DNA of 57,574 bases from an uncultured Bacillales bacterium (GTDB lineage Bacteria; Bacillota_I; Bacilli_A; RF39; UBA660). The stretch's first letter is position 1, and each line of letters starts with the position of its first letter. The notes below the pieces were generated by a model, which saw nothing but the letters and a program-made list of their open reading frames with translations, was not told the DNA's origin and ran no database searches. Where the stretch lies: assembly GCA_946623125.1 (NCBI GenBank), contig CAMOQR010000003.1:1-57574 (forward strand), written 5' to 3'. This document shows, one piece after another, positions 2,021-37,789 of this stretch. Made by a program: the position numbers and the translations under genes.

Positions 2021-2447
2021 TTTCTTCTTCCTCTTTTCTATATTTTTTATTTTTTCTTTTGGCTTCTTGGATGATTTCTAATAATCCAGATATTTGATCT
2101 GGTTCTTCTTCATTCTCATCTATTACATAGGCTCCTATTAAATTATCATTGAAAAATAAGAATTTATTATTTTCTAACCAATCCATTTGTCTGTTTGTCA
2201 CTCGATTTGGTAGATAAAATATAGCAATTCCTTGGTCTTCTACTGTTTTTATAATCATATGTCCATCTTTGGCAATATCAATTGGTGCCTTTTGATAATC
2301 GCCTTCTGTAAAATGATAAGGTAGTCTATATTTTCTTACAAATTCATCTAAGGCTTCTAAATGATTCATCACAATTTCTTGTTCAAAGCATTCCTCTTTT
2401 ATTTTCTTTTCATTAGGAATAATAATTACTCTTCCTCTTTCTCTCAT
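2001..2447 (-). CDS. hypothetical protein (148 aa), acidic/lysine-rich C-terminus
   Basis: ORF in the track. ATGA start/stop overlap with the upstream HAD gene and a 20-nt overlap with the valS start suggest translational coupling. I recognise no motif. Confidence 0.5.
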
Positions 2448-3010
2448 TCTTCCCCCTCCAATTCTTTTAATATTTCCATCCAGGTATTCACTCGTTTGAT
2501 TCCTTTTTTTTCTAATTCTTTATCATCAATATCTTTGTTATGCCACGCTGTCATTAATAATTTTTTATCTGAATTTTCTAAATTACATATTCGATCATCT
2601 ATCGCAATATCAGAATGAATTAAATTTTTATCACTAATAAAGATGTATTGTTTTGGGGATATGAATGGTAAATATTTTTTTAAATAGTCATATTTTTCTT
2701 TTAGATTTATTCCACTTATGTCTGGGTTACTCTCTTCATAAAGGTATGCTGTGGCAATATATAATTTATACTTTTGATTTAATATTTTAAGAGTCTCATA
2801 ACAATCTTTTAGTAATGGACAATCTCCATAAAATGTATGAGTCGTCATATAGTTCCAAAAGCCACCTTTCTTTTCTTTTGAAATTAGATTTTGGAGATAA
2901 AAATCTTTTTGATCATTTAATTTATAATTGGTATTTAAATATTCATTGATTCTTTCCATGAAATAAGCATCTGTTATACAATTGTCCATATCAATCATTA
3001 ATCGTTTCAT
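2444..3010 (-). CDS. HAD-superfamily 5'(3')-deoxyribonucleotidase-like (NT5C/YorS-like) hydrolase
   Basis: Start moved to MKRLMIDMDNCITD (ATG 3008-3010), which is preceded by AGGAGG. The N-terminal DxD motif (DMD) and ~190-aa size fit the NT5C-type HAD family. Confidence 0.6.
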   Translation of the reverse strand: MKRLMIDMDNCITDAYFMERINEYLNTNYKLNDQKDFYLQNLISKEKKGGFWNYMTTHTFYGDCPLLKDCYETLKILNQKYKLYIATAYLYEESNPDISGINLKEKYDYLKKYLPFISPKQYIFISDKNLIHSDIAIDDRICNLENSDKKLLMTAWHNKDIDDKELEKKGIKRVNTWMEILKELEGEE

Positions 3011-3021
3011 ATTTCCTCCTA

Positions 3022-3245
3022 CAAAAAAACTATTCATCCAAAAGGACGAATAGTTCGTGGTACCACCTTAATTTCTACTATATAAGTAGCTCTTTTTGTT
3101 AACGGAATAACCCGGGAATTCTTACTTATTTTCTGAATTCATGCTCCTCTGCTACCTTCATTATTCTTTTTTGTATTCTTTCACCAACATGAATACTCTC
3201 TTAAAAAAAAGTTATAATTACTCCTCAGATTCCTTGCATCTGCTA
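3022..3245 (-). promoter_or_regulatory. T-box riboswitch leader, Val specifier (GUA)
   Basis: Minus-strand read shows AGAGAGTA and GTTGGTGAAAG stem I elements and K-turn halves GATGC/GCATGA. The specifier loop ends ...AATGAAG-GTA-G before the CTG/CAG helix. T-box sequence AAATTAAGGTGGTACCACG is followed by terminator ACTATTC-N12-GAATAGT plus T7. Confidence 0.85.
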
Positions 3246-4148: not shown

Positions 4149-4160
4149 AATTCCTCCTTT

Positions 4161-4631: not shown

Positions 4632-4640
4632 ATTTTCCTC

Positions 4641-7496
4641 CTACTCACTTTCTAGTTCATTTAATTCCGGAGATATACTACTAAAATATGGATTATAGGC
4701 ATCTTCCTCTTTATAATATTCATCGTCTGGATGCTCATTTTCTTCCTTTTCTGATGACATTTTTTCAATATCATCTACTGATACATTTAGTGTATTATCA
4801 TCTTGGTCCCAATCATCCGTATAAAAATCATCATCTTCTATAGCATATTCATCTGTTTCTTCTTCTGTATTTTTGTTATCCATATATGCTTTTGCACCGA
4901 TTCCAGCAGCTGCTGCTGCACTGATTCCTGCCGCAATTGGAATGACTGATGATGAGGTTAGTTTTTGTTTTGAAACTGGTTTTGTTCCTGATGGAATACG
5001 ACTATATTTACTATTTTTTATTACTTCATCTATAGATGATGAACCTTTTTTAACAATTTCATCTAGTTCCTCAAGATTTTCTAAGTCTTGTAGTTCTTCA
5101 CTACCGGTTAAGGCAGCTAATTCTCCTAGGGATGAGGATTCTGTTGTTCCACTTGCGTTGTATCCTGATCCTGAATGATTTTCTCCATTGTTTGTTCCAC
5201 CTGTATTTGTTACCGTTCCTGTACCTTTAGGAGAAGGTATGAATTGTTCTCCAAGTGATGTGGTTGGTGTAGATTTTACGATACCGATGTTTCCTCCACC
5301 GCCCGGTGTAGGGGTGGAATGAGGATATGATGGTATTTTGGGAATTGGTGGTGTATATCTATAAGGCGGAGAATATGAATACGATGGGGTATAATACGAT
5401 GGGGTATAATACGTTGGCGTTGCTGTTACTGTAGGTAATAAAGTTGGAGTATACCTTTCTTGTTTGGTTGGGCAATATGTTTGAGATGGACTTGCTGTTG
5501 GTGTTGGAGATGGTGTTGGTGAGTATGTTGGAGTATACTTTGGTTCTTGAGAACTTCCTCCTTGATTTCTCACTTTTGGATATTCTCCGTTTGAATTTCC
5601 ACCTGAATTTCCACCTGAATTTCCGCCTGAATTTCCACCTTGATTTTGTCCATTTGAATATGGTTGTTCTTTATTATTACCACCTGGTGCTTCACCTCCA
5701 GGAGTATTTTCTCCTCCTGGATTTTCAGTTATTGTACGGACTTTTTCTGAAGTTTTTGGTGTGTCTTGGCTTCCCGTTCTTATTGTGTCATTTATTTCTT
5801 GAACAACTGCTTGTGTTGCTTCTCTTGTGTTATTTCCTGGTTTTTGGACTTCTGTTTCTGCCTTTAATTGTTGGTTTGCTACTTCACCTCTTGTTTGTGT
5901 TGCAGTTACGGCTACAACTCCTGGGATGGCTGGTGCTGCTGATGCTGCTGCAGTTGTTGCTGCATGAACAACCGATGCTGGATTAATATTTTTAGCGGCT
6001 TGTACGACTGATGCTGGATTTAGATTTTTGGCTGTTGCTACTACGCCATCTTTTATATTGGTTAAACCATTCTTTACTGAAGTAACAAGTCCTGCTCCTC
6101 CTTCTTTAGCGGTTGTTAGAGCAGCAGTAGCATTGGAAGTTACAGCTGATGCTGCAGATGTTGCAGCACCTTGAATACTTCCGGTAGTCGTTCCTTTGAT
6201 TGCAGAAATCATTGCATCTACGCCTTTTTTTGTAACCTCTGCTTGTTTTGATCCAATTTTTTGACCTAGTTTTGTAAATTTATCAGAGTAACCTTCAATC
6301 TTTATTCCTTTTGCTTCCTCTAAGGCTTGTTTTGCTTTTTCTAACTCTTTAGCATTTCTTGCCACATCATCCGTTGCATCTGCTATTTTTGCAGCAATAT
6401 CATCACTTGAATTTGCAGCACTATTTATAACGTCATCTGTTTTATCTACTACTTTTGATGTCTGTTTTGCAAGATGATTTATAACATCATCCCCTGAATT
6501 CGCGATTCCATTTAAAACATCATCTGAAGAGGATGCAGCATCTTTTTGAAGCATTTGTAATACTTTTTCAGATTTTGCAAGATTATTTGCCGCATCATCT
6601 ACTTTATCTGCTGCTTGTTGAATGGCTTTAGCCTTTGCAAGTCCTGCAAGTTTTTCTCCGGCTATTCCACCAGCAAAGGCAAATGCAGCTTGTGTTGCAC
6701 CTGCTTTCACACTTTTTTTCATCGCCTCATTATAACTTAGACCTGCGTTAAGTCCTTTTTCCATCGTGTTACCTAGACCACCTAAGCCATTTGCTGCTAC
6801 TGCTCCCCATGTTGAGCCTGATGCAGCTTGTAATGCTATGTTACTTGTTAAACCTAAACCTGACGCAGTCGATGCAAGTACTCCTCCTGCCATTAAGTAT
6901 CCTTCCACTTTTCCAACTACTTTAAGTGCTCCTGCTAAACCACTATCTTCCGTAAAAAGACTTTTTTTTGCAAAATCACTATTATAATATACATTGAACA
7001 AATCGTGAGAAAGATCTTTTTTAATAAAGGTTTCTACATCGTTCTGAAATTCATCGAATCCTAGGGCTCCTGCTCCCCATCCAACAACAGTTGTGACTGA
7101 ATCTATTAAATCCTCCCCAACTGATAAAAGTCCTTCTCCTAACTTTGCTAATGACATGATTGTTGTACTTGATATTTTTTCAAGAGCACTTGATTCACTA
7201 TAAATCTTTATTGCATCTGCTTTATCATTTAATTGAAGTGCTATTGAATGAATGGATTCTGTAATACTTTCAAATAGAGAATCATATGCTCCCACTTGAA
7301 TTGTTCCTACATATTGTTGTAATCCTCTTACATTATTTAATTGTTGTAATGCTGCATTAACATTGTCTTGTGCATTTCCTACCACTGTCTTTGCGATACC
7401 ATTTAATTCATCTGTTACAATTGCAACATTATCAAAATTTGCATATACATCTGCTTCTTTATCGTCTCTTCCTGTCAACCATGATATAAATCCCAT
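4641..7496 (-). CDS. giant T7SS-substrate-like protein, paralog 1 (helical N-domain, Gly/Ala-zipper region, Ala/Thr/Ser-, Gly/Asn- and Tyr/Pro/Thr-rich low complexity, C-terminal TM, acidic tail)
   Basis: Start moved to MGFISWLTG (ATG at 7496, GAAGGGAG RBS) to match the paralog start MGFFSWLTG. No signal peptide. The N-terminal ~200 aa and C-terminal ~70 aa align with ORF 8015-9964. Confidence 0.75.
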   Translation of the reverse strand: MGFISWLTGRDDKEADVYANFDNVAIVTDELNGIAKTVVGNAQDNVNAALQQLNNVRGLQQYVGTIQVGAYDSLFESITESIHSIALQLNDKADAIKIYSESSALEKISSTTIMSLAKLGEGLLSVGEDLIDSVTTVVGWGAGALGFDEFQNDVETFIKKDLSHDLFNVYYNSDFAKKSLFTEDSGLAGALKVVGKVEGYLMAGGVLASTASGLGLTSNIALQAASGSTWGAVAANGLGGLGNTMEKGLNAGLSYNEAMKKSVKAGATQAAFAFAGGIAGEKLAGLAKAKAIQQAADKVDDAANNLAKSEKVLQMLQKDAASSSDDVLNGIANSGDDVINHLAKQTSKVVDKTDDVINSAANSSDDIAAKIADATDDVARNAKELEKAKQALEEAKGIKIEGYSDKFTKLGQKIGSKQAEVTKKGVDAMISAIKGTTTGSIQGAATSAASAVTSNATAALTTAKEGGAGLVTSVKNGLTNIKDGVVATAKNLNPASVVQAAKNINPASVVHAATTAAASAAPAIPGVVAVTATQTRGEVANQQLKAETEVQKPGNNTREATQAVVQEINDTIRTGSQDTPKTSEKVRTITENPGGENTPGGEAPGGNNKEQPYSNGQNQGGNSGGNSGGNSGGNSNGEYPKVRNQGGSSQEPKYTPTYSPTPSPTPTASPSQTYCPTKQERYTPTLLPTVTATPTYYTPSYYTPSYSYSPPYRYTPPIPKIPSYPHSTPTPGGGGNIGIVKSTPTTSLGEQFIPSPKGTGTVTNTGGTNNGENHSGSGYNASGTTESSSLGELAALTGSEELQDLENLEELDEIVKKGSSSIDEVIKNSKYSRIPSGTKPVSKQKLTSSSVIPIAAGISAAAAAGIGAKAYMDNKNTEEETDEYAIEDDDFYTDDWDQDDNTLNVSVDDIEKMSSEKEENEHPDDEYYKEEDAYNPYFSSISPELNELESE
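5592..5639 (-). repeat. perfect/near-perfect 12-bp x4 in-frame tandem repeat encoding (GGNS)4
   Basis: tgaatttccacc tgaatttccacc tgaatttccgcc tgaatttccacc read on the plus strand. A neighbouring 15-bp x2 repeat (acgatggggtataat, 5381-5410) encodes YYTPS-YYTPS. Confidence 0.9.
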
Positions 7497-7571
7497 TTTC
7501 CATTCTCCCTTCAAGCACTTTCGTACAATATACCTATCATAATAATTATAAAAAAAAGTTTGTTATTAGTC

Positions 7572-8014: not shown

Positions 8015-9964
8015 TTATTGCAAGTCAGATAATTCTTCTTGATTTCTTGCAGTATAAGATTCTACGTTGTCTTGATAGTAGTCATCTTCTAATTCTTCGC
8101 CCGAATCATTACTACTATAATTAACTTCTACAGTGTCTTCATCGCCATTCCAATCTTCTGAGGTTGAAAAGTCATCATCTTCATATATAAACTCATCGTC
8201 TTCATCATCTGTTGAGTTATTCTTTTCACGATCAATATATGCTTTTGCGCCAATTCCTGCGGCTGCAGCAGCACTAAGCCCTGCAGCAATTGGAATAACT
8301 GAGCTTCCTTTTTTCTTTTTATTAACATTTGTAGGTGTCGTTGAAGTCGGAATCTTACTATACTTACTTCCATTTATTACATCATTCATTGCAGAATCTC
8401 TTGTTGCAGCATCATCTAATTCATCATCATGCGTTTCATCGAAATCATCAAATATTTCTTCATCTGTTTTTTCTAATGCTTGTAGAGTTTCTGCTTTTTC
8501 AAGTTCATTTACTTTTACACCATTGTCATATGTATATTCATCGTCTCCATATGCACCACCTGCATGAGAAGAATTTCCATCTTTTGGATTATCAGGGTCC
8601 TCATATTCAAATATTTTTTCTTTTTCAGTTGGTGGATCTTCTTGTCCTTTAATGCCCCATTCTTCGTTTGGAGTTGTTGGATTATTCGGATATTGATATC
8701 CTCCATTTACTCCACGTTGACCTCCTTCATCTGCTCTTGGATATGTTGGAATATCCGGTGCTTCTTTTGTTCCTGGAGGATTTTCTTGCGCTGGAGCAGT
8801 TGTTGGAATTGTGTCTGGAATTGTTGTTGGTACAGTTCCTAAAAGGTTCGGAGTTGTGGCTGGATTTGTCTCAGGTGTGGTTGTTGTTATTGTAGCAGGT
8901 GTTTGTTCTCCAGAAGTAGTTCCTCCGCCACCTGGTGTATTTCCACCACCTTCTACTTCTCGTTTTTGTATTTCTTTGTCGCCACCTTCTATTGGTATTT
9001 CTTGTTTTTGTTCTGGATCTTCTATTACTTCTGGAAGCTTTGTCTTTTCTTCTCCATCTTTAGGTATCCCGTCTTTTTTTGGCTCATCTATTATCGTTTC
9101 TACTTTGTTACTAAATTGTTGGTCAGCCATTTTACTTTTTTGAAGTCTTGCATCATTTAATAATGTTGCAGCGGCTGCTGCACCAGCAGTTGATGCAACT
9201 GTTCCACCTAAATGGGCCCCGGCAACTGTTCCAAGTCCTTGAATTATACCTGTTACTAATCCTGTTCCCATCGCCGCATTATAGCTTTGACCATTTTTAA
9301 GACCTTGTTCCACTCCATAACCAAATCCTGATGCGGCAGTTAGTGCTGGACTACCCAATAGCATTAATCCTGCTGTTTTACCTACTATTTTTGTGGCTCC
9401 TGCTATTGCACTATCTTCCGTAATAATACTTTTTTTTGCAAAATCACTTTTATAATACACATTAAATAAATCATGTGAAAGATCTTTTTTTACAAAGTTT
9501 GCAATATCGTTTTGAAATTTTTCAAATCCTAATCCTCCTGCACCCCATCCAACTATGGATACTGCTGTATCTAAAATTCCTTCCCCAACAGATGTAAATC
9601 CTTCTCCCAGTTTTGAAAGAACCATTGCTCCTCCACTTAAAACTTTTGAAAAAGGATCACTTTCACTATAGATTTTAATGGTATCCGCTTTATCATTTAA
9701 TTGTTTTCCTAGAGATTGAATCGTTTCAGTTATCGATTCAAATAATGAATCATAGCTATTTATTTGTATTGTTCCTACGTAGTCTGAAACACCATTTACA
9801 CTATTTACTTCTTGGATAGCTGCTTTTACCTCTTCTTCTGCTTGTTTTACTACTGTCGTTGATATATTGTTAAGTTCTTCAACAACTATTTCTACTTTAT
9901 CAAAATTGGCATATACGTCTGCTTCTTTTTCACTATGCCCTGTAAGCCACGAAAAAAAGCCCAT
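8015..9964 (-). CDS. giant T7SS-substrate-like protein, paralog 2 (same architecture as 4641-7496 but shorter)
   Basis: MGFFSWLTGHSEKEADVYANFDK... with no signal peptide. Features: a Gly/Ala-rich hydrophobic stretch, a Pro/Thr/Glu-rich region, a C-terminal SSVIPIAAGLSAAAAAGIGAKAY TM and an acidic DDEDDEFIYEDDDF tail. Confidence 0.75.
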   Translation of the reverse strand: MGFFSWLTGHSEKEADVYANFDKVEIVVEELNNISTTVVKQAEEEVKAAIQEVNSVNGVSDYVGTIQINSYDSLFESITETIQSLGKQLNDKADTIKIYSESDPFSKVLSGGAMVLSKLGEGFTSVGEGILDTAVSIVGWGAGGLGFEKFQNDIANFVKKDLSHDLFNVYYKSDFAKKSIITEDSAIAGATKIVGKTAGLMLLGSPALTAASGFGYGVEQGLKNGQSYNAAMGTGLVTGIIQGLGTVAGAHLGGTVASTAGAAAAATLLNDARLQKSKMADQQFSNKVETIIDEPKKDGIPKDGEEKTKLPEVIEDPEQKQEIPIEGGDKEIQKREVEGGGNTPGGGGTTSGEQTPATITTTTPETNPATTPNLLGTVPTTIPDTIPTTAPAQENPPGTKEAPDIPTYPRADEGGQRGVNGGYQYPNNPTTPNEEWGIKGQEDPPTEKEKIFEYEDPDNPKDGNSSHAGGAYGDDEYTYDNGVKVNELEKAETLQALEKTDEEIFDDFDETHDDELDDAATRDSAMNDVINGSKYSKIPTSTTPTNVNKKKKGSSVIPIAAGLSAAAAAGIGAKAYIDREKNNSTDDEDDEFIYEDDDFSTSEDWNGDEDTVEVNYSSNDSGEELEDDYYQDNVESYTARNQEELSDLQ

Positions 9965-18307: not shown

Positions 18308-19051
18308 CTATCCATTGTATTTTCCACCATCTACTCTAATCACGGAATCATTTATATAATTTGCTTTTGATGATGCTAAAAAAACAACTACTTTGCTGAT
18401 TTCTTCTGGTTCTGCAAAACGTCCTAATAATATTTTTTTCTTTTCTTCTGCAATTTGTTCAATACTTAAATTTTTATTCATACCTGTTTTTACCCATCCT
18501 GGACAAATACAGTTTACTTGAATATGTGGTGCAAGGTATCTTGCAAAATTATGAGTTAGTGAAATAATTCCTGCCTTAGATGCATCATAATCACAGCTTT
18601 CTGGATAGTATGTATCTATTGCATTTGTTGAGGAAATATTGATAATCTTTCCTTTTTTAGCCTCTTGCATCACTTTTCCTACATATTTACTACATAAATA
18701 TGTTCCAATCACATTAACATCTAGGATTCTTTTAAATTCTTTGATATTTTTGTCCATTAACAAACTATCTCTACATACACTTGCATTGTTTACTAATATA
18801 TCAATCCCACCAAATTGATCCACAATGGTATTCACCATTTTTTCAACTTCTTCTTCTTTCGATATATCACATTTTATTGTTAATACGTCTACTTTGTATG
18901 TTTCTTTTATTCTTTTTTCTAATTGTTTGGCTTCTTGTTCATGGTGACAATAATTGATTACTACGGTAACTCCTTGTTTTGCAAATTCTTCAATGCAACT
19001 TGCACCAATTCCTCGATTACTTCCTGTAACTAATGCAACTACTCTTTTCAT
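18308..19051 (-). CDS. short-chain dehydrogenase/reductase (FabG-like)
   Basis: Start moved to MKRVVALVTGSNRGIG (ATG 19051, GAGGA RBS). NNAS and YDASK catalytic motifs. Confidence 0.8.
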   Translation of the reverse strand: MKRVVALVTGSNRGIGASCIEEFAKQGVTVVINYCHHEQEAKQLEKRIKETYKVDVLTIKCDISKEEEVEKMVNTIVDQFGGIDILVNNASVCRDSLLMDKNIKEFKRILDVNVIGTYLCSKYVGKVMQEAKKGKIINISSTNAIDTYYPESCDYDASKAGIISLTHNFARYLAPHIQVNCICPGWVKTGMNKNLSIEQIAEEKKKILLGRFAEPEEISKVVVFLASSKANYINDSVIRVDGGKYNG

Positions 19052-19062
19052 ATTATTCCTCA

Positions 19063-19482
19063 CTATTCTGTTTCTGTTTTTATGTTTGTAATAAACTCTT
19101 CTAAATTTTTCTTTTTAGCGGAAGTTAATATTGAATGTACATTTCCTTCTACAACATAAATAATACTTGGTTCAATAATATCATTTTCTACTAAATTTAT
19201 TTTTTTTAATATTGTTAGATAGTTTTTTTGGGTTGACGTATTTAGTATTTGGTATGGAATATTTTCTTTTTTAATAACTTCCTCTAACGCTTTACAATTG
19301 GAACATTTATCTTTTTTTACAAGGATTATAAATGTTTGGTGATTCTCTATATTTTTTTCTATATTAGATGTTATTATTCCAAACTTATTCCTTAAGAATA
19401 AGATAAAAGGAATTGAAAAAATTATAATTATAACTATTGTAAATACAATATTTCTTAATAAATTTTCTAAATCCTCATCCAT
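19063..19482 (-). CDS. membrane-anchored thioredoxin-fold protein (CxxC = CSNC)
   Basis: N-terminal TM, then ILVKKDKCSNCKALEEV, typical of a thioredoxin/glutaredoxin-like fold. Confidence 0.5.
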   Translation of the reverse strand: MDEDLENLLRNIVFTIVIIIIFSIPFILFLRNKFGIITSNIEKNIENHQTFIILVKKDKCSNCKALEEVIKKENIPYQILNTSTQKNYLTILKKINLVENDIIEPSIIYVVEGNVHSILTSAKKKNLEEFITNIKTETE

Positions 19483-19487
19483 TCCTA

Positions 19488-21758
19488 TTACCTCCCTACT
19501 GATTTTTGGGAAATTAAGGCTTCTTTTCTTTTTTCAAACTCTTTTTTAGATACTCCAAAGATTGGGTGGAATGTGTTATTCTCTGTTACCATACTTTCAC
19601 CAATTTCATGTAAATAAGATTCTCTTTCTACAATCTCCTCTAATGATAGTTTTAATATTCCTGTACTATTTTTTATACATTCTAATTTTCTTTTTCCATA
19701 AAGATATGCAAAAACACTACATATATGTGTTTTATTATGTATAATAGCTTGCGGTATTAGATACTCTTCTCCAAATTCTCTTTTAATATAGAGAATGCTA
19801 TCTTCTAATTCTAGAGCAGTTTTTACAAATACAATTCCAGTAATTGGTACATTATATTTTTTACATACATCAATTATTTTTTGAACTTCTTCTGGTTTTT
19901 TTACAAATGTATTATTGGTTGGTTTATGGCCTAATTCTTTCATCGTAATATTATATATTTGTCGTATTTCTTCAGGCGTTCTTTTAAATACAGAGCCTTT
20001 AGGTTCTATCTTTAAATCTTGGCATACTTCTATAATCTTAGACATTGCATCTGGGTTTTTACGAAATACGCTTGCATTGAGTGCAAGATTATTATCCTGA
20101 CAAATATCTAGAATTCCTTTTACTTCTTGTGGCTTTCTTTTAAACATAGCATCTTGATATGGTACTTTATATTGTTGACAAATCTTTAAGATTTTATCAA
20201 TTTCTTCTGGTGTTCTAAAAAACATTGAATTACATATCTTTATTTGATTCTCTTCACAATAATTTATTACATCTTGAAAATTGCTTGCACTTTTTTGAAA
20301 TAGTGTACCTGTTACTTTTATTCCTTTTTCCTTAGCAATTTTTAAAATATCGTTTACTTCGTTCGGTGGTTGGTTAAAGACGTTTGGTGTGATATTTACT
20401 TCATAGTCCTGGCATAATTTTATAATTTGTTTAATTTCTTCTAGACTTCTCTGTAAGTATGTTGGACTGTATTTCATGTTATGTCTTTTTAAATATGTGA
20501 TAATCATATTAAATTCTTTCGGTGTTTTAAGAAATACACTTCCTGTTGGTAGTATTTTGTTCCATTTACACAATTGTAGAATTTCTCTTACTTCTTCTGG
20601 GGTTCTATGAAACATGGTATTTTCTAATTTTATATTTTTATCATCACAGATTGCTATTATTTCTTCTATTTCTGATGCTGTCCGATAAAAAATAGATCCT
20701 TCTTTTTTCAAATTATATTTTTCACATAATTCCATTATTTTAGCAATTTCTTCTTCTCTTTGTTTAAAAATGGATCCTCCAATTGTTTCGATTTCCCTTT
20801 TTTTACAAAATTCTATAATATTCTCTATTTCTGTTGCACTTCTTGCAAACATGGATTCCACAATATCTATTTTATTTTTATTACATATTGCAATAATTCG
20901 TCTCATTTCTTGTGGTGTTGTCATAAACATACTTGCTTTTACTTTTAAATGATATTCTTCACAAATATTTAATATTTCTTCTATATTTTCAGGATTTGTT
21001 CGAAAAATTAATCCTTTTAAGTCAATCTTGTTACTACGACAGGTTTCAACAATACCCTTAAAATCTTCTAAGGGACAACCATACATACTCGGAGAAAGAT
21101 TGATATGTTCTTTTTGGCAGTATTCTTTCATGATACGAAGTTCAGATGAATTCTTATGGAAAATAGATCCTGTTATTGGGATTTCTTCTTCATTACAAAA
21201 CTTAATATCTTTTATTACTTCATATGGTGGTTGGTTAAATACTGTTGTTGTTACTGGTATTTTATAATAATTACATATTGCTATAATTTCATCAATTTCT
21301 TGATATGTTCTTGATGATGTACAAGCACCTAATAAGACATTTTTTTCTAATACTTCTCCAAATAAATAATAGATTAATCTTATTCTATTTGATTTTACTC
21401 TTAGAATCGTAGTATTTTTATTAATTGCATCTATTCCAAAACATTCCTCTGCCATACTATATGAATCTTTCAGATCTTCTTCGTTTAAAGATAAAATATG
21501 AAGACATCCTTCTACACTATAATTATCTATTTTTTTATCTTGTAAGAAGTTATAGTTATTTTTGATAACATCTTTTTTTTGCTTTAAAATACTCGGACAT
21601 TTTTCTATATTTTTGGTACTGATTCCTAATTCCTTTTTTAAATATTCTAATACTTCTAAAACATTTTCACTTGATGTTTCTTGTTCTAACATTTCGTATT
21701 GTTCTTGCTTTAGTTTTATATCATATTCTTGTAATACTTTCCATATATTTTTACTCAT
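19488..21758 (-). CDS. tandem 26-residue-repeat solenoid protein with mTERF-like N-terminal region (unknown function)
   Basis: About 19-20 consecutive repeats between residues ~145 and ~665. The conserved aromatic falls at residues 174, 200, 226, 252, 278, 304, 331, 357, 383, 409, 435, 461, 487, 513, 539, 565, 591, 618 and 644. Consensus: s-[IVM]-F-x-[RK]-t-P-x-E-[IV]-x-x-I-[IL]-x-[IL]-C. The N-terminus has LEYLKKELGISTKNIEKCPSILKQ. Confidence 0.7.
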   Translation of the reverse strand: MSKNIWKVLQEYDIKLKQEQYEMLEQETSSENVLEVLEYLKKELGISTKNIEKCPSILKQKKDVIKNNYNFLQDKKIDNYSVEGCLHILSLNEEDLKDSYSMAEECFGIDAINKNTTILRVKSNRIRLIYYLFGEVLEKNVLLGACTSSRTYQEIDEIIAICNYYKIPVTTTVFNQPPYEVIKDIKFCNEEEIPITGSIFHKNSSELRIMKEYCQKEHINLSPSMYGCPLEDFKGIVETCRSNKIDLKGLIFRTNPENIEEILNICEEYHLKVKASMFMTTPQEMRRIIAICNKNKIDIVESMFARSATEIENIIEFCKKREIETIGGSIFKQREEEIAKIMELCEKYNLKKEGSIFYRTASEIEEIIAICDDKNIKLENTMFHRTPEEVREILQLCKWNKILPTGSVFLKTPKEFNMIITYLKRHNMKYSPTYLQRSLEEIKQIIKLCQDYEVNITPNVFNQPPNEVNDILKIAKEKGIKVTGTLFQKSASNFQDVINYCEENQIKICNSMFFRTPEEIDKILKICQQYKVPYQDAMFKRKPQEVKGILDICQDNNLALNASVFRKNPDAMSKIIEVCQDLKIEPKGSVFKRTPEEIRQIYNITMKELGHKPTNNTFVKKPEEVQKIIDVCKKYNVPITGIVFVKTALELEDSILYIKREFGEEYLIPQAIIHNKTHICSVFAYLYGKRKLECIKNSTGILKLSLEEIVERESYLHEIGESMVTENNTFHPIFGVSKKEFEKRKEALISQKSVGR

Positions 21759-22029
21759 TTTCTATGCACTCCCATAGTCCTGTATTTTCTTCGATTTTTT
21801 CTACGTATTCAACTCCTAATTTTTTGATTAACTCATCAACCTTTTCTTGAAATAGTGTTGGATCTTGAAGAAATGAATATGGATAAAGCTCAAATAATTC
21901 TATCACATTATCATATCCTCTATTTTTTAAATAATCTAAATTGTCTAATAGATCTTCTTTATTATCTTTCAATTCTTTTAATATACTGTTTCCATATATT
22001 TCCTGTAACTTTTCTAGTTTTAAATTCAT
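21751..22029 (-). CDS. small mTERF-like helical protein (92 aa), overlaps the repeat-protein start by 8 nt
   Basis: Start moved to MNLKLEK (ATG 22029, GGAAGGTG RBS). LDYLKNRGYDNVIELFELYPYSFLQDP...LIKKLG resembles the mTERF motif and the N-terminus of the downstream protein. Confidence 0.5.
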   Translation of the reverse strand: MNLKLEKLQEIYGNSILKELKDNKEDLLDNLDYLKNRGYDNVIELFELYPYSFLQDPTLFQEKVDELIKKLGVEYVEKIEENTGLWECIENE

Positions 22030-22087
22030 AGAAAACACCTTCCTATTCTTATTGTACTATAAAGAATCAAAAAAGGAAAAGATTCTA

Positions 22088-22117
22088 GTGAAAAAAAGAT
22101 ATGTATGACATATCTTT
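22088..22117 (-). terminator. terminator after ileS
   Basis: Minus strand AAGATATGT-CAT-ACATATCTT followed by T7. Confidence 0.65.
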
Positions 22118-27467: not shown

Positions 27468-27579
27468 AATTGTCCTCCAAATACTTTTGCTATTCATCTA
27501 CTATAAGTTATTTTATCATATATTTTTTAAAAGAAAAAGTCCAAATTTGCATTTCTATTTATCATTTGAACTTTTTTTA

Positions 27580-29625
27580 TTACCCTACTGGTGTTAGCAT
27601 CATTGGATTTACGGCTTGTGTTTCTGCTGGATTTTGTGGAATCATTTGTTGTGGCATTACTGGTTGAGATGCTTGTTGCATGTTTGCTTGAATAATTTGT
27701 TGTGTTACGTTGTTTTGTTCCATTGGTTGTGGCATTGCTGGTTGAGCAGCATTTTGCATACCAAATGGATTTGCTGCCATCATTTGTTGAGCCATAGCTG
27801 TAGCATCTGCATTTGCAACAGCTTGAATGTTTTGATTTTGGACTGGTGCTGCCTCTGGTTCTGTATACCAAACTTTTTCAAGATCAACGTTATTTGATAA
27901 TGGTCTTGGATTTGGTAAGTCTATATACATTGTTGTAGGTACTTTAAAAGCACTTCCAAAAGCAATACAATTTCCTGGTTTCAAATTCTTTAATTGTAAA
28001 ACAATTTCGGCCGAAACAAATGGAACCATCTCTTTAATATATTTTAAATCTACCGGGTGCATCGTTCTTAAAATAACAAAATTTACACACTGAGATACAC
28101 AGGTATCGGATAACTCACTTGGTCTTTGAGTAATCATTGCTAAAAATATACCATATTTACGTCCCTCTTTAGCAATACGTTCGAATATATTATATCCTAA
28201 CAATTCAATATCACTATCGTGTTGTACATAACGGTGTGCCTCTTCGATGATAATATGAAAGGCTCTGCTACCTCTTGGTTTAATCATACTTGATTTGATA
28301 AATAGCATTCTTGAAATGATTTTTGTAATAACTTTAGCAATACGATCATCTACATAGTTTATGTTAAAGTTTACAATTTGTACTCTACCACCTGTTGTAG
28401 GATCCGTTGTCAAGGTATCAATAAACTGGTCTCTTGTAACATATTTTGGATAAGTAAAGTAATGTCTGTTATCTCCTGTTGCTAAGGTATGTAAACGTAC
28501 ACTCATAACGTTTGCATTATCAAATACTTTATTACTTTTTAAAATACCTTCATTAATAAGCGCAAAGTCCATAGCAAGTTCTAGATCATTTAATGAATAA
28601 TATGGATTTGCATCTGATTCATCTAGAATTTCATCTTCTAGTATGTATCCTCTTATAAACTCTACAACTAATTCCATCTCTTGCATTTTACCTGTTTTAT
28701 CAACAAATAAACATTGTTTAAAAGTACGAGTATATCCTGGTTGTACAATTTGACTTTCCAAATTAAGGGTTGGTGTATTAAATTTTGTCATTACACCTAT
28801 TACTTGGTCACGAATTTTGGTTGATTCATCTCCACTTAATAGGATATCTTGTACTGCTCTTGCAATAATATCATTTTTTCTTTTTATAACTTTATCACTT
28901 GTACCTGTTAAGATACGTACAAGTTTTAATGTTTTTTCAATAATAGGTAATTGAGATGGTGAGTTTGCATCTAGTAATAGTGCTAGATCATCTACATCTA
29001 ATAACCAAACTGGGATTCTTAAAATTTCACAATCTGGATCGATAATATTTGTTGTATATGATTTATATCCTAATTTAGAGTTTACATCATGTAATCCACT
29101 AAAGGCGTGCGTATACTCTCCATAGGCATCGAAGAAGAATAGGGATGAATTAATTGGTGGTGTTGGACTACTAGTAAATAGTTTTTGTAGGATAGATGCA
29201 ACTGTACAGCTTTTACCAGAACCAGTATTTCCTAAAATAGAAAAGTGACTGTTAAAAAACTCATTTATAGATACGTTTATTTTATATCCTTCATATACAT
29301 TACTTGTTCCAAAGTTTGTATATCCTAAAGATGTTTCTTGTTTACCATAGATTAATTCCAATTCTTCCATTTCAATTAATCGAATGGTTGATTTGAATGC
29401 AGGCTTTACATTTCCACCTGGTGTAAAGTTTCCATCGTTTATTTCACCTACTAAATTGGCATACATATATTCTTTGTCTACGTTTACTATTTCTGCAATG
29501 ATTTTCTTATTACTTCCATCTTCAAACACAATATGTAAGTTTACTAAGTTTGGTTGTTCTGTAATATCAATCTCTAATTTTATTTTTACTTGGTTATCTA
29601 GTATCTGTTCAATTTTTCCTAGCAT
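27580..29625 (-). CDS. HerA-like (DUF87) FtsK/HerA-superfamily P-loop ATPase with Gln/Pro/Met-rich C-terminal tail
   Basis: Start taken at MLGKIEQ (ATG 29625, GAGGGTGA RBS). N-terminal HAS-barrel-like segment, Walker A ILGNTGSGKS, Walker B FHIIIEEAHRYV, ITQRPSELS. The last ~85 aa are a low-complexity Q/P/M/A/N tail. No TM segment. Confidence 0.8.
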   Translation of the reverse strand: MLGKIEQILDNQVKIKLEIDITEQPNLVNLHIVFEDGSNKKIIAEIVNVDKEYMYANLVGEINDGNFTPGGNVKPAFKSTIRLIEMEELELIYGKQETSLGYTNFGTSNVYEGYKINVSINEFFNSHFSILGNTGSGKSCTVASILQKLFTSSPTPPINSSLFFFDAYGEYTHAFSGLHDVNSKLGYKSYTTNIIDPDCEILRIPVWLLDVDDLALLLDANSPSQLPIIEKTLKLVRILTGTSDKVIKRKNDIIARAVQDILLSGDESTKIRDQVIGVMTKFNTPTLNLESQIVQPGYTRTFKQCLFVDKTGKMQEMELVVEFIRGYILEDEILDESDANPYYSLNDLELAMDFALINEGILKSNKVFDNANVMSVRLHTLATGDNRHYFTYPKYVTRDQFIDTLTTDPTTGGRVQIVNFNINYVDDRIAKVITKIISRMLFIKSSMIKPRGSRAFHIIIEEAHRYVQHDSDIELLGYNIFERIAKEGRKYGIFLAMITQRPSELSDTCVSQCVNFVILRTMHPVDLKYIKEMVPFVSAEIVLQLKNLKPGNCIAFGSAFKVPTTMYIDLPNPRPLSNNVDLEKVWYTEPEAAPVQNQNIQAVANADATAMAQQMMAANPFGMQNAAQPAMPQPMEQNNVTQQIIQANMQQASQPVMPQQMIPQNPAETQAVNPMMLTPVG

Positions 29626-29645
29626 CAAAATCACCCTCTATTATC

Positions 29646-34599: not shown

Positions 34600-34630
34600 T
34601 AAAATAGTAATGGAAAAATTACCATTACTA
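34600..34630 (-). terminator. terminator after surface-protein paralog A
   Basis: TAGTAATGG-N8-CCATTACTA followed by TTTT. It overlaps the stop codon. Confidence 0.45.
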
Positions 34631-36088
34631 TTTATTATATTTTTCTCTTTTGTCTTGCTTTTTCAATATGATACTGAAGATAATTATTATTCCTAAGGAT
34701 AGAATTAGATTATAAAAATTATTTCCTGTTTTGGGATTATTATTTATCATCGTACTTTTTTCAGATGAATATTTAATAATTTTTTTATTTGGCACTATGT
34801 TTGTTGTAATTACAGATACTTTATATTCTTTATATTCTACGTCTTCACCAATTGCTGCCACACAGTATTTTGGATAATAAAAAGTATTTTCTGATACTTG
34901 ATAATATAGTCCTCCTAAATTTGGTCCTTGATAGGGGCTTGAGCATCCTCCCCCTTTGTAATAAAATTCACTTCCACATGCATATGTAAGAAAATGGGTC
35001 CCATCCTTTACAAATGCTCTAATGCTTTCAATTTGTTGATATTCTTTTAAAATAATTGTGTCATTTGTAATTTTTTCTTTTCCTTCTATTTGTATCGTTG
35101 CGATAAGATTGTCTTGCGTATGATTTTTATTTTTTAAAGAATAAAATGTGCTTTCGATATCTATATATTCATTTTGGATTTCATCATATTCTTCTATAGT
35201 ATCCGTAAATGTAGATAGTTCCCAATTGTCCGATACTTGTATGTTTTTTACATTAATCGTCTCATCATTTACAGAAAAAACAATAAAATCTATATTTTGT
35301 GGATTTGTTGATACTATTTTTGCTGTTCCTGTTTCATTTTTTTCCATTTCATTTACTTCTAAAGATACATCACTATAATCGTTTTCTTTATATACTATAA
35401 AGGCTCTTTTATAAGTATTATCTACATTTCCATCATAATCTATATGGTCTTCATTAAAATAATCATCTACTAATTGATTTATTCTATTTTTTTCTTCGTC
35501 AGTAAAACTAAAATTTGCAAATAAAGAATTTATGTCTGTTGTATATCCAAGAAACTGATAGAAATCAATGTTTTTGTAATTATCTCCTCTTGTATATGAA
35601 TCTATATAACATTTCTCACTTTCCTCTTGTGCTGTCGTGCAGGAAACATCTGTTATTAATTCTGTTATTGGTTTACCAATTGGAATTTCTTTGTATTGAT
35701 AATAACTATTCCATTTTTCTGTATAGCTTGTGTCATTACATGTCAATTGATCAGGAGAGTAATATTCCATTTGTTCTTCACATTCTTCTTTGCTTGTATA
35801 ATATTCGTTATCTGAATAATTATAAGTTTTCTCTTCTACATATGTTGTATCATATATATTGTCTGAGGCAAAATTTGCAAGTACAAAATTATTGTTTTTG
35901 TCAAAATATATTACGTATTGATAATCTTTAAAAAACACTTCATCACCTGTTGATATTATATTTCCTAATCCTTCCCAACCATTAAACTTTGTATAGTTCG
36001 AACTTTCAAAGTTAGCCATTACTTTTGTTGTAAGTGTTATTAAAAATACAGCAACAATTAAAACGAAAAATGTTCTCTTCTTTTTCAC
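34628..36088 (-). CDS. secreted Cys-rich protein of unknown family with NPKTG sorting-like signal (paralog A)
   Basis: GTG start. Signal peptide MKKKRTFFVLIVAVFLITLTTKVMA. C-terminus NNPKTGNN plus a hydrophobic span plus KKQDKREKYNK. Alignable along its length with 36362-37789 and 38440-39867. Confidence 0.75.
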   Translation of the reverse strand: MKKKRTFFVLIVAVFLITLTTKVMANFESSNYTKFNGWEGLGNIISTGDEVFFKDYQYVIYFDKNNNFVLANFASDNIYDTTYVEEKTYNYSDNEYYTSKEECEEQMEYYSPDQLTCNDTSYTEKWNSYYQYKEIPIGKPITELITDVSCTTAQEESEKCYIDSYTRGDNYKNIDFYQFLGYTTDINSLFANFSFTDEEKNRINQLVDDYFNEDHIDYDGNVDNTYKRAFIVYKENDYSDVSLEVNEMEKNETGTAKIVSTNPQNIDFIVFSVNDETINVKNIQVSDNWELSTFTDTIEEYDEIQNEYIDIESTFYSLKNKNHTQDNLIATIQIEGKEKITNDTIILKEYQQIESIRAFVKDGTHFLTYACGSEFYYKGGGCSSPYQGPNLGGLYYQVSENTFYYPKYCVAAIGEDVEYKEYKVSVITTNIVPNKKIIKYSSEKSTMINNNPKTGNNFYNLILSLGIIIIFSIILKKQDKREKYNK

Positions 36089-36361: not shown

Positions 36362-37789
36362 CTATTTCTTTTTTTCTTGTTTTTTTAATAGAATGGAAAA
36401 GATAAGAATTATTTCTAAAGATAGTACAAGGGGGATAACACTTCGTTGCGTTTTTGGATTATTATTTATAATAATCTTTTGTGGGGAAGAATATTTTATA
36501 ATTTTTTTATTTGGTACTGCGTCTTTTGTTCTTATTGGTACTTTATAATCATCGTATTCTATGTTATTATCTTTTCCAATAACACAATATTGAGGATAAT
36601 AAAATGTATTTTCTGCTATTTGATTGTATGAGTTTCCTTGGTCTGCTGATTGATATGGACTATCACAGCCTCCACCACTATAATTAAATTCACTTCCACA
36701 TCCATATGTATGATAATGCTCTCCGTCTTTTACAAAGGCTTTTATGTTCTCCATTTGTTGGTATTCTTTTATAATAACTGTATCATCTGTAATTTTTTCT
36801 TTTCCCTCTATTTGTATCGTTGCAATAAAATTGTCTTGTGTATGATTTTTATTTTTCAAAGAATAAAATGTTCTTTCAATATCTATATATTCATCTTGTA
36901 TTTCATCATATTCTTCTGTTACATCGGTAAATGTGGATAATTCCCAATTATCTGATGCCTTTAAATTCTTTACATTTGCCACTTGTTCATTAATAGAAAA
37001 CACAATATAATCAATATTCTGAGGATTTGATGATACTAATCTTGCGTTATTGGTTTCGTTCTTTGCTGTTTCTGTTAATTCTAATGTTACATCTGTATAG
37101 TGGTTTTCTTTATACACAACAAGATGATGATTTGTTGCTATCCCATACTTTTCTATTAGTTCGTTTAGTTTTGTTTTTTCTTCATTTGTAAAGTTAAAAT
37201 TTTCATATAATTTATTTACATCTTTTACATATCCGATAAATTGATATGTTTCAATATTTTTATAATTATTGTCTCTTTTATAGGAGTCTATATAACACTT
37301 TTTACTTTCATCTTGAGTTGTTAAACATTCAACTTCTTTTATGGTATCAGTAATTGGTTCTCCTAGAGGAATTTCAAAACTAGTATAATTATAATATCTT
37401 TTTAGTGTATAGCTTGTATTATTACATATTAGTTCATCTGGATCATCTGGACTGCTATAATAGTATTCTCTTTCCTCTTCACATTCTTCTTTGCTTGTAT
37501 AATATTCGTTATCTGAATAATTATAAGTTAGCTCTTCAAGATATGTCATGTCATATATTTCGTCTGACGTGAAATTGGCAAGGACAAAATTGTCATCTTT
37601 ATCCAAATATATTGCATTTTGAATATCAGCCAGTCTTATTTTTTCCCCTTTTTCAATTACTTCTCCTAAACCATCCCAACCACCAGAATGGCTATAATCC
37701 CATTCATCAAAATACGCCATCACTTTTGTTGTAAGTGTTATTAAAAATACGGCAACAATTAAAACGAAAAATGTTCTCTTCTTTCTCAT
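36362..37789 (-). CDS. secreted Cys-rich protein of unknown family, paralog B (sorting-like signal NPKTQ)
   Basis: Signal peptide MRKKRTFFVLIVAVFLITLTTKVMA differs from paralog A only at residue 2 (R for K). C-terminus NNNPKTQRS plus a hydrophobic span (containing a Glu) plus KKQEKKK. Confidence 0.75.
   Translation of the reverse strand: MRKKRTFFVLIVAVFLITLTTKVMAYFDEWDYSHSGGWDGLGEVIEKGEKIRLADIQNAIYLDKDDNFVLANFTSDEIYDMTYLEELTYNYSDNEYYTSKEECEEEREYYYSSPDDPDELICNNTSYTLKRYYNYTSFEIPLGEPITDTIKEVECLTTQDESKKCYIDSYKRDNNYKNIETYQFIGYVKDVNKLYENFNFTNEEKTKLNELIEKYGIATNHHLVVYKENHYTDVTLELTETAKNETNNARLVSSNPQNIDYIVFSINEQVANVKNLKASDNWELSTFTDVTEEYDEIQDEYIDIERTFYSLKNKNHTQDNFIATIQIEGKEKITDDTVIIKEYQQMENIKAFVKDGEHYHTYGCGSEFNYSGGGCDSPYQSADQGNSYNQIAENTFYYPQYCVIGKDNNIEYDDYKVPIRTKDAVPNKKIIKYSSPQKIIINNNPKTQRSVIPLVLSLEIILIFSILLKKQEKKK

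Follow-up and report, generated by a model that had tools for sequence, protein, structure and literature searches.

The window analysed here, 57,574 nucleotides of contig CAMOQR010000003.1 from an uncultured Bacillales bacterium, carries on its minus strand a gene (19488..21758) for a 756-aa cytoplasmic protein, referred to below as BIG, most of which is a tandem array of short Cys-containing units. What fold does such an array adopt, and what might it bind? Sequence comparison established the repeat, its family, a partner gene, the homology of a cap that flanks the array and a hypervariable unit position in relatives, and the fold was predicted with AlphaFold2.

Twenty regular units between two caps

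BIG is laid out as an N-terminal cap (residues 1-145, 21324..21758), an array of 20 units (residues 146-667, 19758..21323) and a C-terminal cap (residues 668-756, 19491..19757), all read on the minus strand. A first-pass annotation of the DNA had described a regular 26-residue Cys-containing array of about 19-20 copies at 19764..21326, equivalent to residues 145-665, and this holds with 20 units in residues 146-667. BLOSUM62 self-similarity of the protein peaks at shifts of 52, 26, 78 and 104 residues (0.33, 0.28, 0.14 and 0.03, respectively), and this 26-residue periodicity lies far above the best value from 300 shuffles (−0.46). The units start in register at residues 146, 172 and onwards to 642 (n = 20), all with 26 residues except for two of 27 (302 to 329 and 589 to 616). 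Twenty unit matches in residues 151-653 were also obtained with a repeat HMM made from relatives, and the array is present in the structure model.

Phe occupies unit position 3 in 17 of the 20 units, Glu position 9, Ile position 13 and Cys position 17 in 16 units each, and Lys or Arg position 5 in 14. On pairwise average, two units share 26% of their amino acids and 50% of their nucleotides, and by this comparison the units are old and diverged. Tandem Repeats Finder reported no 78-bp DNA repeat in the gene because its units are only 50% identical as DNA. The protein is about neutral (pI 6.9, net charge −1).

A predicted helical solenoid

The AlphaFold2 model of BIG is a confident all-helical solenoid (pLDDT 90.5), which agrees with the solenoid or superhelical fold that the first-pass annotation had expected from the regularity. 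In the model each unit comprises a 5-residue helix at positions 1-5, s-[VIM]-F-x-[KR], and a 13-residue helix at positions 7-19. The repeat Cys is probably buried, since position 17 belongs with positions 10, 13 and 14 to the hydrophobic side of the 13-residue helix.

When the model was compared with the PDB by Foldseek, the top 22 matches were all TALE-type DNA binders, including BurrH 4cj9 (E = 5.5e-7), PthXo1 3ugm, the TALE-based TOD proteins and dHax3. Seven of the next 11 were mTERF proteins (MTERF1 and MTERF4/METRF4), for example 3mvb_O with a probability of 1.00 and a target TM-score of 0.45. HEAT, ARM, TPR, PPR and PUF entries were absent from the 50 matches listed. The TALE matches have TM-scores of at most 0.27, rmsd values above 23 Å and 8-11% identity; as modelled, the likeness between BIG and TALEs is one of the local unit, not of the global shape.

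Caps related to mTERF proteins

A profile (A5) of 21 N-terminal caps searched against PDB sequences matched human MTERF3 (3m66) with E = 4.1e-6, followed by MTERF1 (E 0.003-0.02) and MTERF4 (E 0.04-0.1), and mTERF proteins made up 13 of its 14 matches. The whole-family profile likewise found MTERF3 first (E = 0.0015). The mTERF-like look noted earlier for the N-terminal segment is thus backed by the MTERF3 match; on profile evidence this cap is remotely homologous to mTERF proteins, the homology covering the cap only. The mTERF family PF02536, which had been named as a candidate, was the top Pfam match for three of four isolated N-terminal caps, at scores (16.6-17.1 bits, E about 0.003) below its gathering cut-off of 23.1 bits. 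The whole BIG protein had no mTERF match in Pfam, and a PDB sequence search with BIG as a single query gave no matches, the mTERF proteins being reached by profiles only. The C-terminal cap is kept across the family (C-terminal cap HMM E = 1.9e-38; conserved in alignments A1 and A2) and has one weak match to MTERF4.

The motifs in the caps carry a conserved Pro and then hydrophobic residues (IEKCPSIL), as does the mTERF motif, which is described as about 30 residues long, position 8 being Pro and positions 11, 18 and 25 hydrophobic (PMC11417379). This Pro is absent from the 26-residue units. The unit itself has no significant sequence match to the mTERF motif: hhalign could align it with the cap motif only across a gap of 5 residues and below significance (P = 0.009, probability 4.5%). 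Matches of whole BIG to FAD_binding_4, CNOT1_HEAT, SAP and SAP_new25 in Pfam and NCBIfam were rejected as repeat artefacts summed from weak partial matches; most contain no single passing stretch, and the few passing ones span just 13-90 residues.

Eukaryotic mTERF proteins (PF02536) are helical-repeat solenoids, like BIG as modelled, and bind DNA or RNA along the solenoid. Human mTERF proteins have few motifs (about 8-9), which are degenerate and about 30 residues long. The eukaryotic motifs are not tandemly homogenised and their proteins reside in animal and plant organelles, whereas BIG has 20 regular 26-residue units that look like contracted motifs.

A small family of gut and rumen Bacilli

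BIG belongs to a small, unannotated and uncharacterised family of about 280 clusters among 1.8 billion proteins, with more than 265 homologues, which is confined to metagenome-assembled genomes (MAGs) of uncultured low-GC, small-genome Bacilli from gut and rumen. In the subfamily of BIG the length is fixed (747-771 aa) and the individually diverged units are kept in order among orthologues. Arrays in relatives have 6-24 units, 24 being the most scored; many MAG contigs are broken within family genes, which makes the copy numbers of public assemblies unreliable. The caps are common to relatives with 28-, 29- and 30-residue periods, and none with a 35-residue period was seen. PDB searches with the 29- and 30-residue-period relatives gave no matches, and a homology search with the cap profile returned 34 proteins, mostly fragmentary.

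The family was not found in the phage collection or in IMG/VR, and PADLOC and PHROGs gave no credible match. It is also absent from the plasmid collection, where the sole match, on the Microcystis plasmid NZ_CP025929.1, was rejected as a coincidence of period, since it is 17% identical and lies antisense to an unrelated tandem repeat.

A hypervariable unit position in relatives

Unit position 4 follows the conserved Phe and precedes the conserved Lys/Arg. Across 128 family proteins the within-protein entropy is highest at this position (2.10 bits), followed by position 1 (1.53 bits), with all others at or below 1.23 bits. Of 23 genes with a DNA identity of at least 80% between repeats, 22 diverge most strongly at codon 4. 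This codon has 1.85 nucleotide differences per repeat pair, as compared to 0.06-0.94 at the other codons. Synonymous-codon identity is 0.845 between repeats and 0.654 in non-repeat parts of the same genes, indicating that the arrays are homogenised while codon 4 stays diverse. The residues found at position 4 in relatives are L, R, K, Q, Y, N, M, H, F and S, and Asp or Glu occurs in only 9 of 905. Proteins with caps at least 95% identical differ in unit number (6-10) and in the string of position-4 residues, as in the strain variants RQQKSK, RQQKFYK and RQYQQKYYK.

Within the subfamily of BIG, position 4 is the least conserved among distant orthologues (identity 0.11), and at closer distances it is not more variable than other surface positions. 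As the signal is weak here, the code-like pattern comes mainly from the paralogous subfamilies. The first-pass annotation did not include the hypervariable position, which is seen in the relatives with homogenised repeats. The commonest residue at the position is Leu (26%), unusual for a residue that reads bases.

Upstream partner gene and neighbours

Directly upstream of BIG on the minus strand lies a gene for a 92-aa helical protein (21751..22029), whose stop overlaps the start codon of BIG by 8 nt (ATGAGTAA). We take the ATG at 22029, which follows a GGAAGGTG ribosome-binding site, to be its true start, and not the GTG at 22038; a near-identical homologue (P0269, 99% identical) starts at the same ATG. 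This gene, not noticed previously, accompanies the family gene in the same orientation at 63 of the 80 loci (homologues at loci L001 and L004 are 39-40% identical) and is the only family-wide neighbour. A profile of the partner found nothing meaningful in the PDB, with weak CheY matches at E about 0.2. The partner shows a weak similarity to the BIG caps (hhalign E = 1.4e-4, probability 53%), and its HMM matches the start of the C-terminal cap with E about 0.02. A structure model of the partner (pLDDT 53), based on one near-identical sequence, was set aside.

Downstream, the first-pass annotation had listed a membrane CxxC thioredoxin-like gene and a short-chain dehydrogenase (SDR) gene, tightly spaced, and both are present as described with gaps of at most 5 nt. 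The former (19063..19482, minus strand) begins 5 nt after the BIG stop and encodes a 139-aa membrane-anchored thioredoxin/glutaredoxin-like protein that carries a CxxC motif as well as a single hydrophobic helix at the N terminus. Its Glutaredoxin and NrdH matches are weak and below cut-off. The SDR gene follows at 18308..19063, minus strand (PF13561, E = 1e-59). When neighbours were compared across the family, conservation extended to the 92-aa gene and not to these two genes. Since only 10 of the 80 loci have them, they are lineage-specific neighbours and not functional partners of the family. No other conserved neighbour was found across the family loci, where the surrounding genes are assorted housekeeping genes (ileS, thrS, mutL, truB, miaA, era and ruvB).

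Putative nucleic-acid binding and its alternatives

The reading that we favour, with somewhat more confidence than doubt, is that BIG is a cytoplasmic alpha-solenoid with mTERF-related caps and a TALE-like shape that serves as a putative modular nucleic-acid binder. mTERF-type motifs would form both caps, with 20 contracted 26-residue units between them stacked through the hydrophobic positions 2, 3, 10, 13, 14, 17 and 22. We infer from the model which helix faces are exposed: that of the short helix would present position 1, position 4 and the conserved Lys/Arg 5 as a continuous stripe along the spiral. This stripe may bind nucleic acid, the basic residue holding the backbone while position 4, helped by position 1, reads about one nucleotide or base pair per unit. 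Such unit-by-unit reading would resemble that of TALE, PPR and PUF proteins, and the arginines of MTERF1 offer a further comparison. As the BIG subfamily keeps a fixed length and unit order, the target of BIG in its own cell would probably be a single, long and fixed one, and BIG is probably co-translated with its 92-aa, mTERF-motif-like partner. In favour of nucleic-acid binding are the TALE and mTERF fold matches, the cap homology, the variable position 4, the published pTERF analogy and the partner gene. Speaking against it are the low TM-scores of the TALE matches, the near-neutral charge, the frequent Leu at position 4, the weak position-4 signal in the subfamily of BIG, the sub-threshold Pfam scores and the failure of the 26-residue unit to match the mTERF motif significantly. 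A bolder proposal, possible although we regard it with doubt, is that the family is a native, programmable nucleic-acid reader of the bacterial cytoplasm in which position 4, with help from position 1, specifies one nucleotide, arrays are reshuffled between strains of uncultured gut Bacilli to retarget them, and a TALE-like code arose from an mTERF-like ancestor. Retargeted arrays might then act on particular DNA or RNA, for instance by regulating, silencing or excluding it.

TALE, BurrH and Bat proteins of Xanthomonas and Burkholderia are the best structural matches to the BIG model. As modelled, the BIG unit resembles the TALE unit in its order of short helix, turn with a variable residue and long helix, and in both the long helix has a conserved Cys that is probably buried. 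TALEs and the BIG family also have in common near-identical repeats with a hypervariable position, and unit number and strings of variable residues that differ by strain. Variation in the TALE unit of 33-35 residues falls on two neighbouring positions (12 and 13), whereas the BIG unit has 26 residues and one main variable residue, and neither BIG nor the family profile has a sequence match to any TALE in the PDB. TALEs are secreted Gram-negative effectors that act in eukaryotic hosts; in contrast, BIG family proteins have no signal sequence and their genes lie among housekeeping genes of gut Bacilli.

At the level of published description, the closest relatives are the pTERF proteins (Hu et al., Nucleic Acids Res 2024, PMC11417379), mTERF-like DNA binders of prokaryotes with tandem repeats of a 35-residue period. 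The earlier remark that no characterised bacterial family with this repeat is known has to be qualified in view of these 35-residue binders, whose unit is a different one. According to that account, pTERF proteins from ruminant-gut MAGs bind specific dsDNA with nanomolar affinity, different repeat arrangements recognising different motifs, and pTERF1 binds ACTNNNAGTC with a Kd of 1.9 nM (PMC11417379). Both groups occur in gut and rumen Bacillota MAGs and have tandem helical repeats, distant mTERF similarity and a variable number of units. mTERF motifs are annotated inside the pTERF repeats, whereas BIG has sub-threshold mTERF similarity in its caps only. The single hypervariable residue, the strain-level variation and the 92-aa partner of the BIG family go unmentioned in the pTERF section of that paper.

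Two further readings of the helical array have to be weighed against this one. BIG could be a plain member of the pTERF family and thus a known kind of sequence-specific dsDNA binder. Habitat and data source are the same, pTERF1 (MBQ3414883.1) coming from a ruminant-gut MAG and the family member MBQ8472592.1 (P0001) from the same MAG series, and both groups combine tandem helical repeats with mTERF similarity. The units differ, however: the pTERF1 identifier TR_35_C32_2 encodes a 35-residue period, and pTERF arrays are described with three helices per unit and 3-11 units, as compared to 26 residues, two helices and 20 units in BIG (up to 24 scored in relatives), and the relatives found to share its caps have periods of 28, 29 or 30 residues, none of them 35. 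We consider such membership improbable. A scaffold that binds proteins or peptides, as ARM, HEAT and TPR solenoids do, with position 4 tuning the fit to a fast-evolving partner such as a phage or mobile-element protein, is a stronger contender, if still rather unlikely. It would suit the predicted all-helical solenoid, the near-neutral charge and the frequent Leu, Met and Phe at position 4; the small co-translated partner could be its ligand or cap, and strain-level diversification is also what a protein-protein arms race would produce. Yet the nearest folds are nucleic-acid binders (TALE/BurrH and mTERF) and not ARM, HEAT or TPR proteins, the caps are homologous to mTERF, and the variable residue adjoins a conserved Lys/Arg and is almost never acidic. 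Nor does the setting favour an arms race: the genes lie among housekeeping genes and not in defence islands, PADLOC and PHROGs gave no real match, and the phage, plasmid and viral collections contain no member of the family.

The remaining alternatives start from the conserved Cys. A redox or metal-binding array that works with the membrane thioredoxin-like protein and the SDR is suggested by the single Cys conserved in the unit (present in 16 of the 20 in BIG) and by the close spacing of the CxxC protein and SDR genes behind BIG, and we give it very little credence. A unit has that single Cys with no CxxC, His or second Cys as partner, the Cys would lie on the hydrophobic side of the long helix, and the two genes are missing from most of the family. 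The likeness to Cys-containing leucine-rich repeats (LRRs) that had been raised earlier draws on the unit length of 26 and the conserved Cys only. The array model has no beta strands, and LRRs are found neither in Pfam nor among the Foldseek matches listed. An LRR protein thus has practically no probability left, and in so far as a confident prediction can decide the matter, the reading is refuted.

Should nucleic acid be read by the stripe that positions 1, 4 and 5 form, the BIG unit would be a new modular recognition unit with a single specificity residue. At 26 residues, as compared to 34-35 in TALE or PPR repeats, it would be shorter than these by about 25% and, to our knowledge, the shortest helical repeat in such a role. 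The many natural strain variants already sampled would then be attractive raw material for engineering. mTERF-type proteins were long thought to be limited to eukaryotic organelles, and the cap homology adds to very recent evidence of bacterial relatives; the programmable reader, if real, would suggest that these proteins have a bacterial history. In these uncultured small-genome gut and rumen Bacilli, arrays that occur in multiple copies, vary by strain and sit beside housekeeping genes are a pointer to a regulatory or conflict system not recognised before.

Transcription of the BIG locus

A promoter scan gave sites no more numerous than in shuffled sequence. Directly after the ileS stop, an AT-rich hairpin (AAGATATGT-CAT-ACATATCTT) followed by a T run can be read at 22091..22116 on the minus strand. 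The terminator scan did not flag it because its stem holds just 2 G-C pairs. From its sequence and position the hairpin is likely the ileS terminator, and the partner gene and BIG would therefore begin a separate transcription unit.

The 26-residue repeat array

The minus-strand gene at 19488..21758 encodes a 756-aa protein in which 20 units lie in register from residue 146, each of 26 residues except two of 27. The array occupies window positions 19758-21323 on the minus strand (protein residues 146-667). The first-pass annotation had reported a regular 26-residue tandem array at 19764..21326, corresponding to residues 145-665, and this is borne out by self-comparison, register layout, and a repeat HMM built from relatives, which gives 20 unit matches. 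Self-similarity (BLOSUM62) peaks at shifts of 52, 26, 78, and 104 residues (0.33, 0.28, 0.14, and 0.03, respectively), compared with a best value of −0.46 among 300 shuffles. Conserved residues are Phe3 (17/20 units), Lys/Arg5 (14/20), and Glu9, Ile13, and Cys17 (16/20 each). The units are old: on average, two of them share 26% of their amino acids and 50% of their nucleotides. Because of this low DNA identity, Tandem Repeats Finder detected no 78-bp repeat. The slightly higher peak at shift 52 than at shift 26 hints at an ancestral two-unit block; unit-to-unit identity at offsets 1-4 (0.24-0.29) shows no clear alternation in this array.

A hypervariable residue in each unit

Among 128 family proteins with at least six clean units, within-protein entropy is highest at position 4 (2.10 bits), the residue between the conserved Phe and the conserved Lys/Arg, followed by position 1 (1.53 bits), with all other positions at or below 1.23 bits. 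Twenty-three genes have units with a DNA identity of at least 80%, and in 22 of them codon 4 diverges more between units than any other codon; it has 1.85 nucleotide differences per pair, as compared to 0.06 to 0.94 for the other codons. Synonymous-codon identity is 0.845 between units, as compared to 0.654 outside the repeats of these genes, and therefore the arrays have been homogenised or recently duplicated while codon 4 was kept diverse. The position-4 residues are L, R, K, Q, Y, N, M, H, F, and S, with acidic residues in only 9 of 905 cases. Proteins with caps at least 95% identical, presumably from strains of one species, differ in unit number, their lengths stepping by 26 (e.g. 419/445/471/497/523), and in their position-4 strings. 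This pattern matches that of the repeat-variable residues of TALEs. In almost every array of these cap-identical proteins the first, degenerate unit has Arg at position 4 (every position-4 string begins with R), recalling the fixed "repeat 0" of TALEs. In the window protein, position 4 of the first unit is Ser and position 5 is Arg.

The window protein belongs to a fixed-length subfamily of 19 proteins (747-771 aa, 28-46% identity, near gap-free alignment). Within it, distant orthologues agree less at position 4 than at any other position (identity 0.11); among closer members the variability of position 4 does not exceed that of other surface positions. From these alignments the window copy appears to be a stable version, part of the lineage core and with a single fixed ligand, rather than a fast-retargeting one.

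Predicted fold and relationship to mTERF proteins

The AlphaFold2 model of the window protein, computed from an alignment of 40 family members, is all helical with a mean pLDDT of 90.5. Every unit forms a short helix of 5 residues (s-V-F-x-K/R) and then a longer one of 13, giving the regular solenoid anticipated from the periodicity. A pTM as low as 0.51 is normal for an elongated rod or spiral. Judged from the helical periodicity, positions 1, 4, and 5 would share the exposed face of the short helix, with positions 2 and 3 buried, and positions 10, 13, 14, and 17 (Cys) would form the buried face of the long helix. The top 22 Foldseek matches in the PDB are all TALE-type DNA-binding repeat proteins, including BurrH (4cj9, E=5.5e-7), PthXo1 (3ugm), TALE-based TOD proteins, and many dHax3 entries. 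With TALEs, TM-scores stay low (≤0.27), and the likeness therefore lies in the unit and not in the overall spiral. Seven of the next 11 matches are mTERF proteins (e.g. 3mvb_O, probability 1.00, target TM-score 0.45), with designed helical repeats after them. The PDB matches listed include no LRR, ARM, HEAT, TPR, PPR, or PUF structure, and with an all-helical model the suggested resemblance to Cys-containing LRRs is dropped.

The window protein sequence alone found no relative among PDB sequences. The family profile matched human MTERF3 first (E=0.0015), over the N-terminal domain, and a profile of 21 N-terminal caps matched MTERF3 (E=4.1e-6), MTERF1 (0.003-0.02), and MTERF4 (0.04-0.1), with mTERF proteins making up 13 of its 14 PDB matches. 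PF02536 is the top Pfam match for three of four isolated caps, at ∼17 bits, under the cut-off of 23.1. On the evidence of these profile and Pfam matches, the caps are remote homologues of mTERF proteins. The mTERF likeness proposed in the first-pass annotation thus stands for the N-terminal cap, with PF02536 below threshold, and does not reach significance for the unit. A 5-residue gap brings the 26-residue unit into sensible register with the cap motif (P=0.009, probability 4.5%, not significant), which is only suggestive of an mTERF motif with a contracted middle helix.

Distribution of the family

Against 5.8 billion proteins, a word-indexed search in which the 8,000 best candidates were scored yielded at least 265 homologues, all from metagenomes or MAGs and named in every source, where named at all, "hypothetical protein". 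Searched exhaustively with an HMM, 1.84 billion cluster representatives gave only 281 at E≤0.001. Across 185,579 species, with one genome per species, 130 stretches encode relatives, all in gut or rumen MAGs. Their labels include Bacilli bacterium, Mycoplasma sp. CAG:877, Clostridium sp. CAG:302, Tenericutes, and Erysipelotrichaceae; we take the CAG:877 and CAG:302 names usually to denote small-genome uncultured Bacilli orders of the RF39 and RFN20 type. Family members were absent from phage, plasmid, and viral collections. The only plasmid tblastn match, at 4001-5833 of locus L081 (Microcystis aeruginosa NIES-2481 plasmid p1, NZ_CP025929.1), was rejected as a coincidence of period: it is an antisense translation of an unrelated near-perfect tandem repeat in a 1237-aa hypothetical protein.

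Other relatives combine the same N- and C-terminal caps with a unit length of 28 (P0137, P0172), 29 (P0208, P0210, P0234), or 30 residues (P0185, P0188, P0261; unit LLTPxIFxR..EI..IL.LPYWK), and one protein (P0128) has an alternating 54-aa double unit. The 26-residue array is therefore one class of a broader superfamily with variable unit length and is the shortest class among those seen. Many MAG contigs end inside the array (L013, L016, L020, L033, L037, L043, L048, L052, L054, L059, L060, and others), presumably since near-identical 78-bp units defeat short-read assembly. With contigs broken in this way, repeat counts from public assemblies are not reliable.

A small partner gene

Directly upstream on the minus strand lies a gene for a 92-aa protein (21751..22029), the end of which overlaps the first 8 nt of the large gene (ATGAGTAA), an arrangement that suggests translational coupling. 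Its true start is the ATG at 22029, behind the ribosome-binding site GGAAGGTG, and a 99% identical protein (P0269) begins at the corresponding ATG. The small protein shows weak similarity to the large protein's caps. Its homologues adjoin family genes on the same strand in 63 of 80 loci, and it is kept even where all other neighbours differ. An AT-rich hairpin and a T run follow the ileS stop, and a separate transcript therefore probably starts with the small and large genes. The thioredoxin-like and SDR genes remarked on earlier do follow the large gene, and are in turn followed by a Met gamma-lyase-family gene, but this arrangement is confined to the window's own lineage (10-11 of 80 loci); the remaining neighbours across loci are assorted housekeeping genes. 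Orthologues with 33% identity (P0004, loci L001-L003) share the order ileS, small gene, large gene, thioredoxin-like, SDR.

The window carries a single large gene and a single small one. Many genomes have tandem paralogues, with a maximum of four large genes behind one small gene (L035, 1373-8284). Other clusters are a row of three large genes of up to 1115 aa (L036, 4923-12724), L063 (2057-8491), L018, L021, and L022. In some such clusters the small gene is found between the large genes, or after them.

Candidate function

The best-supported reading, to which we give somewhat better than even chances, is that the large protein is a nucleic-acid-binding solenoid. The conserved basic residue at position 5 would contact the nucleic-acid backbone, and specificity would come from position 4 together with position 1. 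This reading is favored because the closest fold neighbours (TALE-type and mTERF) are nucleic-acid binders, the caps are homologous to mTERF, and the variable residue is code-like and avoids acidic side chains. Base-specific contacts in MTERF1-DNA structures are made by arginines along the solenoid, which would parallel the proposed reading by position 4. By analogy, the prokaryotic mTERF-like tandem-repeat proteins pTERF1 and pTERF2 also argue for it, being described by Hu et al. 2024 (PMC11417379) as binding specific dsDNA with nanomolar affinity. Against nucleic-acid binding count the neutral charge of the window protein (pI 6.9), the frequency of Leu at position 4, and the low Foldseek TM-scores; the main rival is a protein-binding scaffold.

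Hu et al. was the only relevant report in our literature search. Its pTERF1 (MBQ3414883.1) has the identifier TR_35_C32_2, encoding a 35-residue period, and is described with three helices per unit and 3-11 units. The unit of our family differs, a distinction drawn from period and description. The pTERF section of that paper makes no mention of a hypervariable residue, strain-level variation, or a partner gene like those of our family. No Pfam or NCBIfam model covers the window protein, and the initial view that no characterised bacterial family has this repeat needs amending for the similar type published in 2024. The Pfam and NCBIfam matches listed were discarded as summed weak partial matches produced by the repeat. 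By analogy, we place the family among the modular nucleic-acid binders built from helical repeats, with those of prokaryotic mTERF-like type.

Other features of the window

The T-box leader, the five large ORFs with little or no Pfam annotation, and the 2542-aa and 684-aa proteins described here are all on the minus strand. A T-box leader (RF00230, 130.8 bits) at 3039-3243 lies directly upstream of a 197-aa ORF (2444..3037). ORFs of 957 aa (4641-7514), 649 aa (8015-9964), 486 aa (34628-36088), and 475 aa (36362-37789) have no Pfam match at E≤1e-5, and the only Pfam match of a 1520-aa ORF (42020-46582) is a C-terminal DUF7601. A 2542-aa protein (49778-57406) with GH94 catalytic, GH94 supersandwich, and glucoamylase-like domains is a very large protein of the glycoside phosphorylase or glucan synthase type. 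A 684-aa protein (27580-29634) has a HerA/DUF87 ATPase domain, and its gene is overlapped by a 114-aa TTG ORF (27527..27871).
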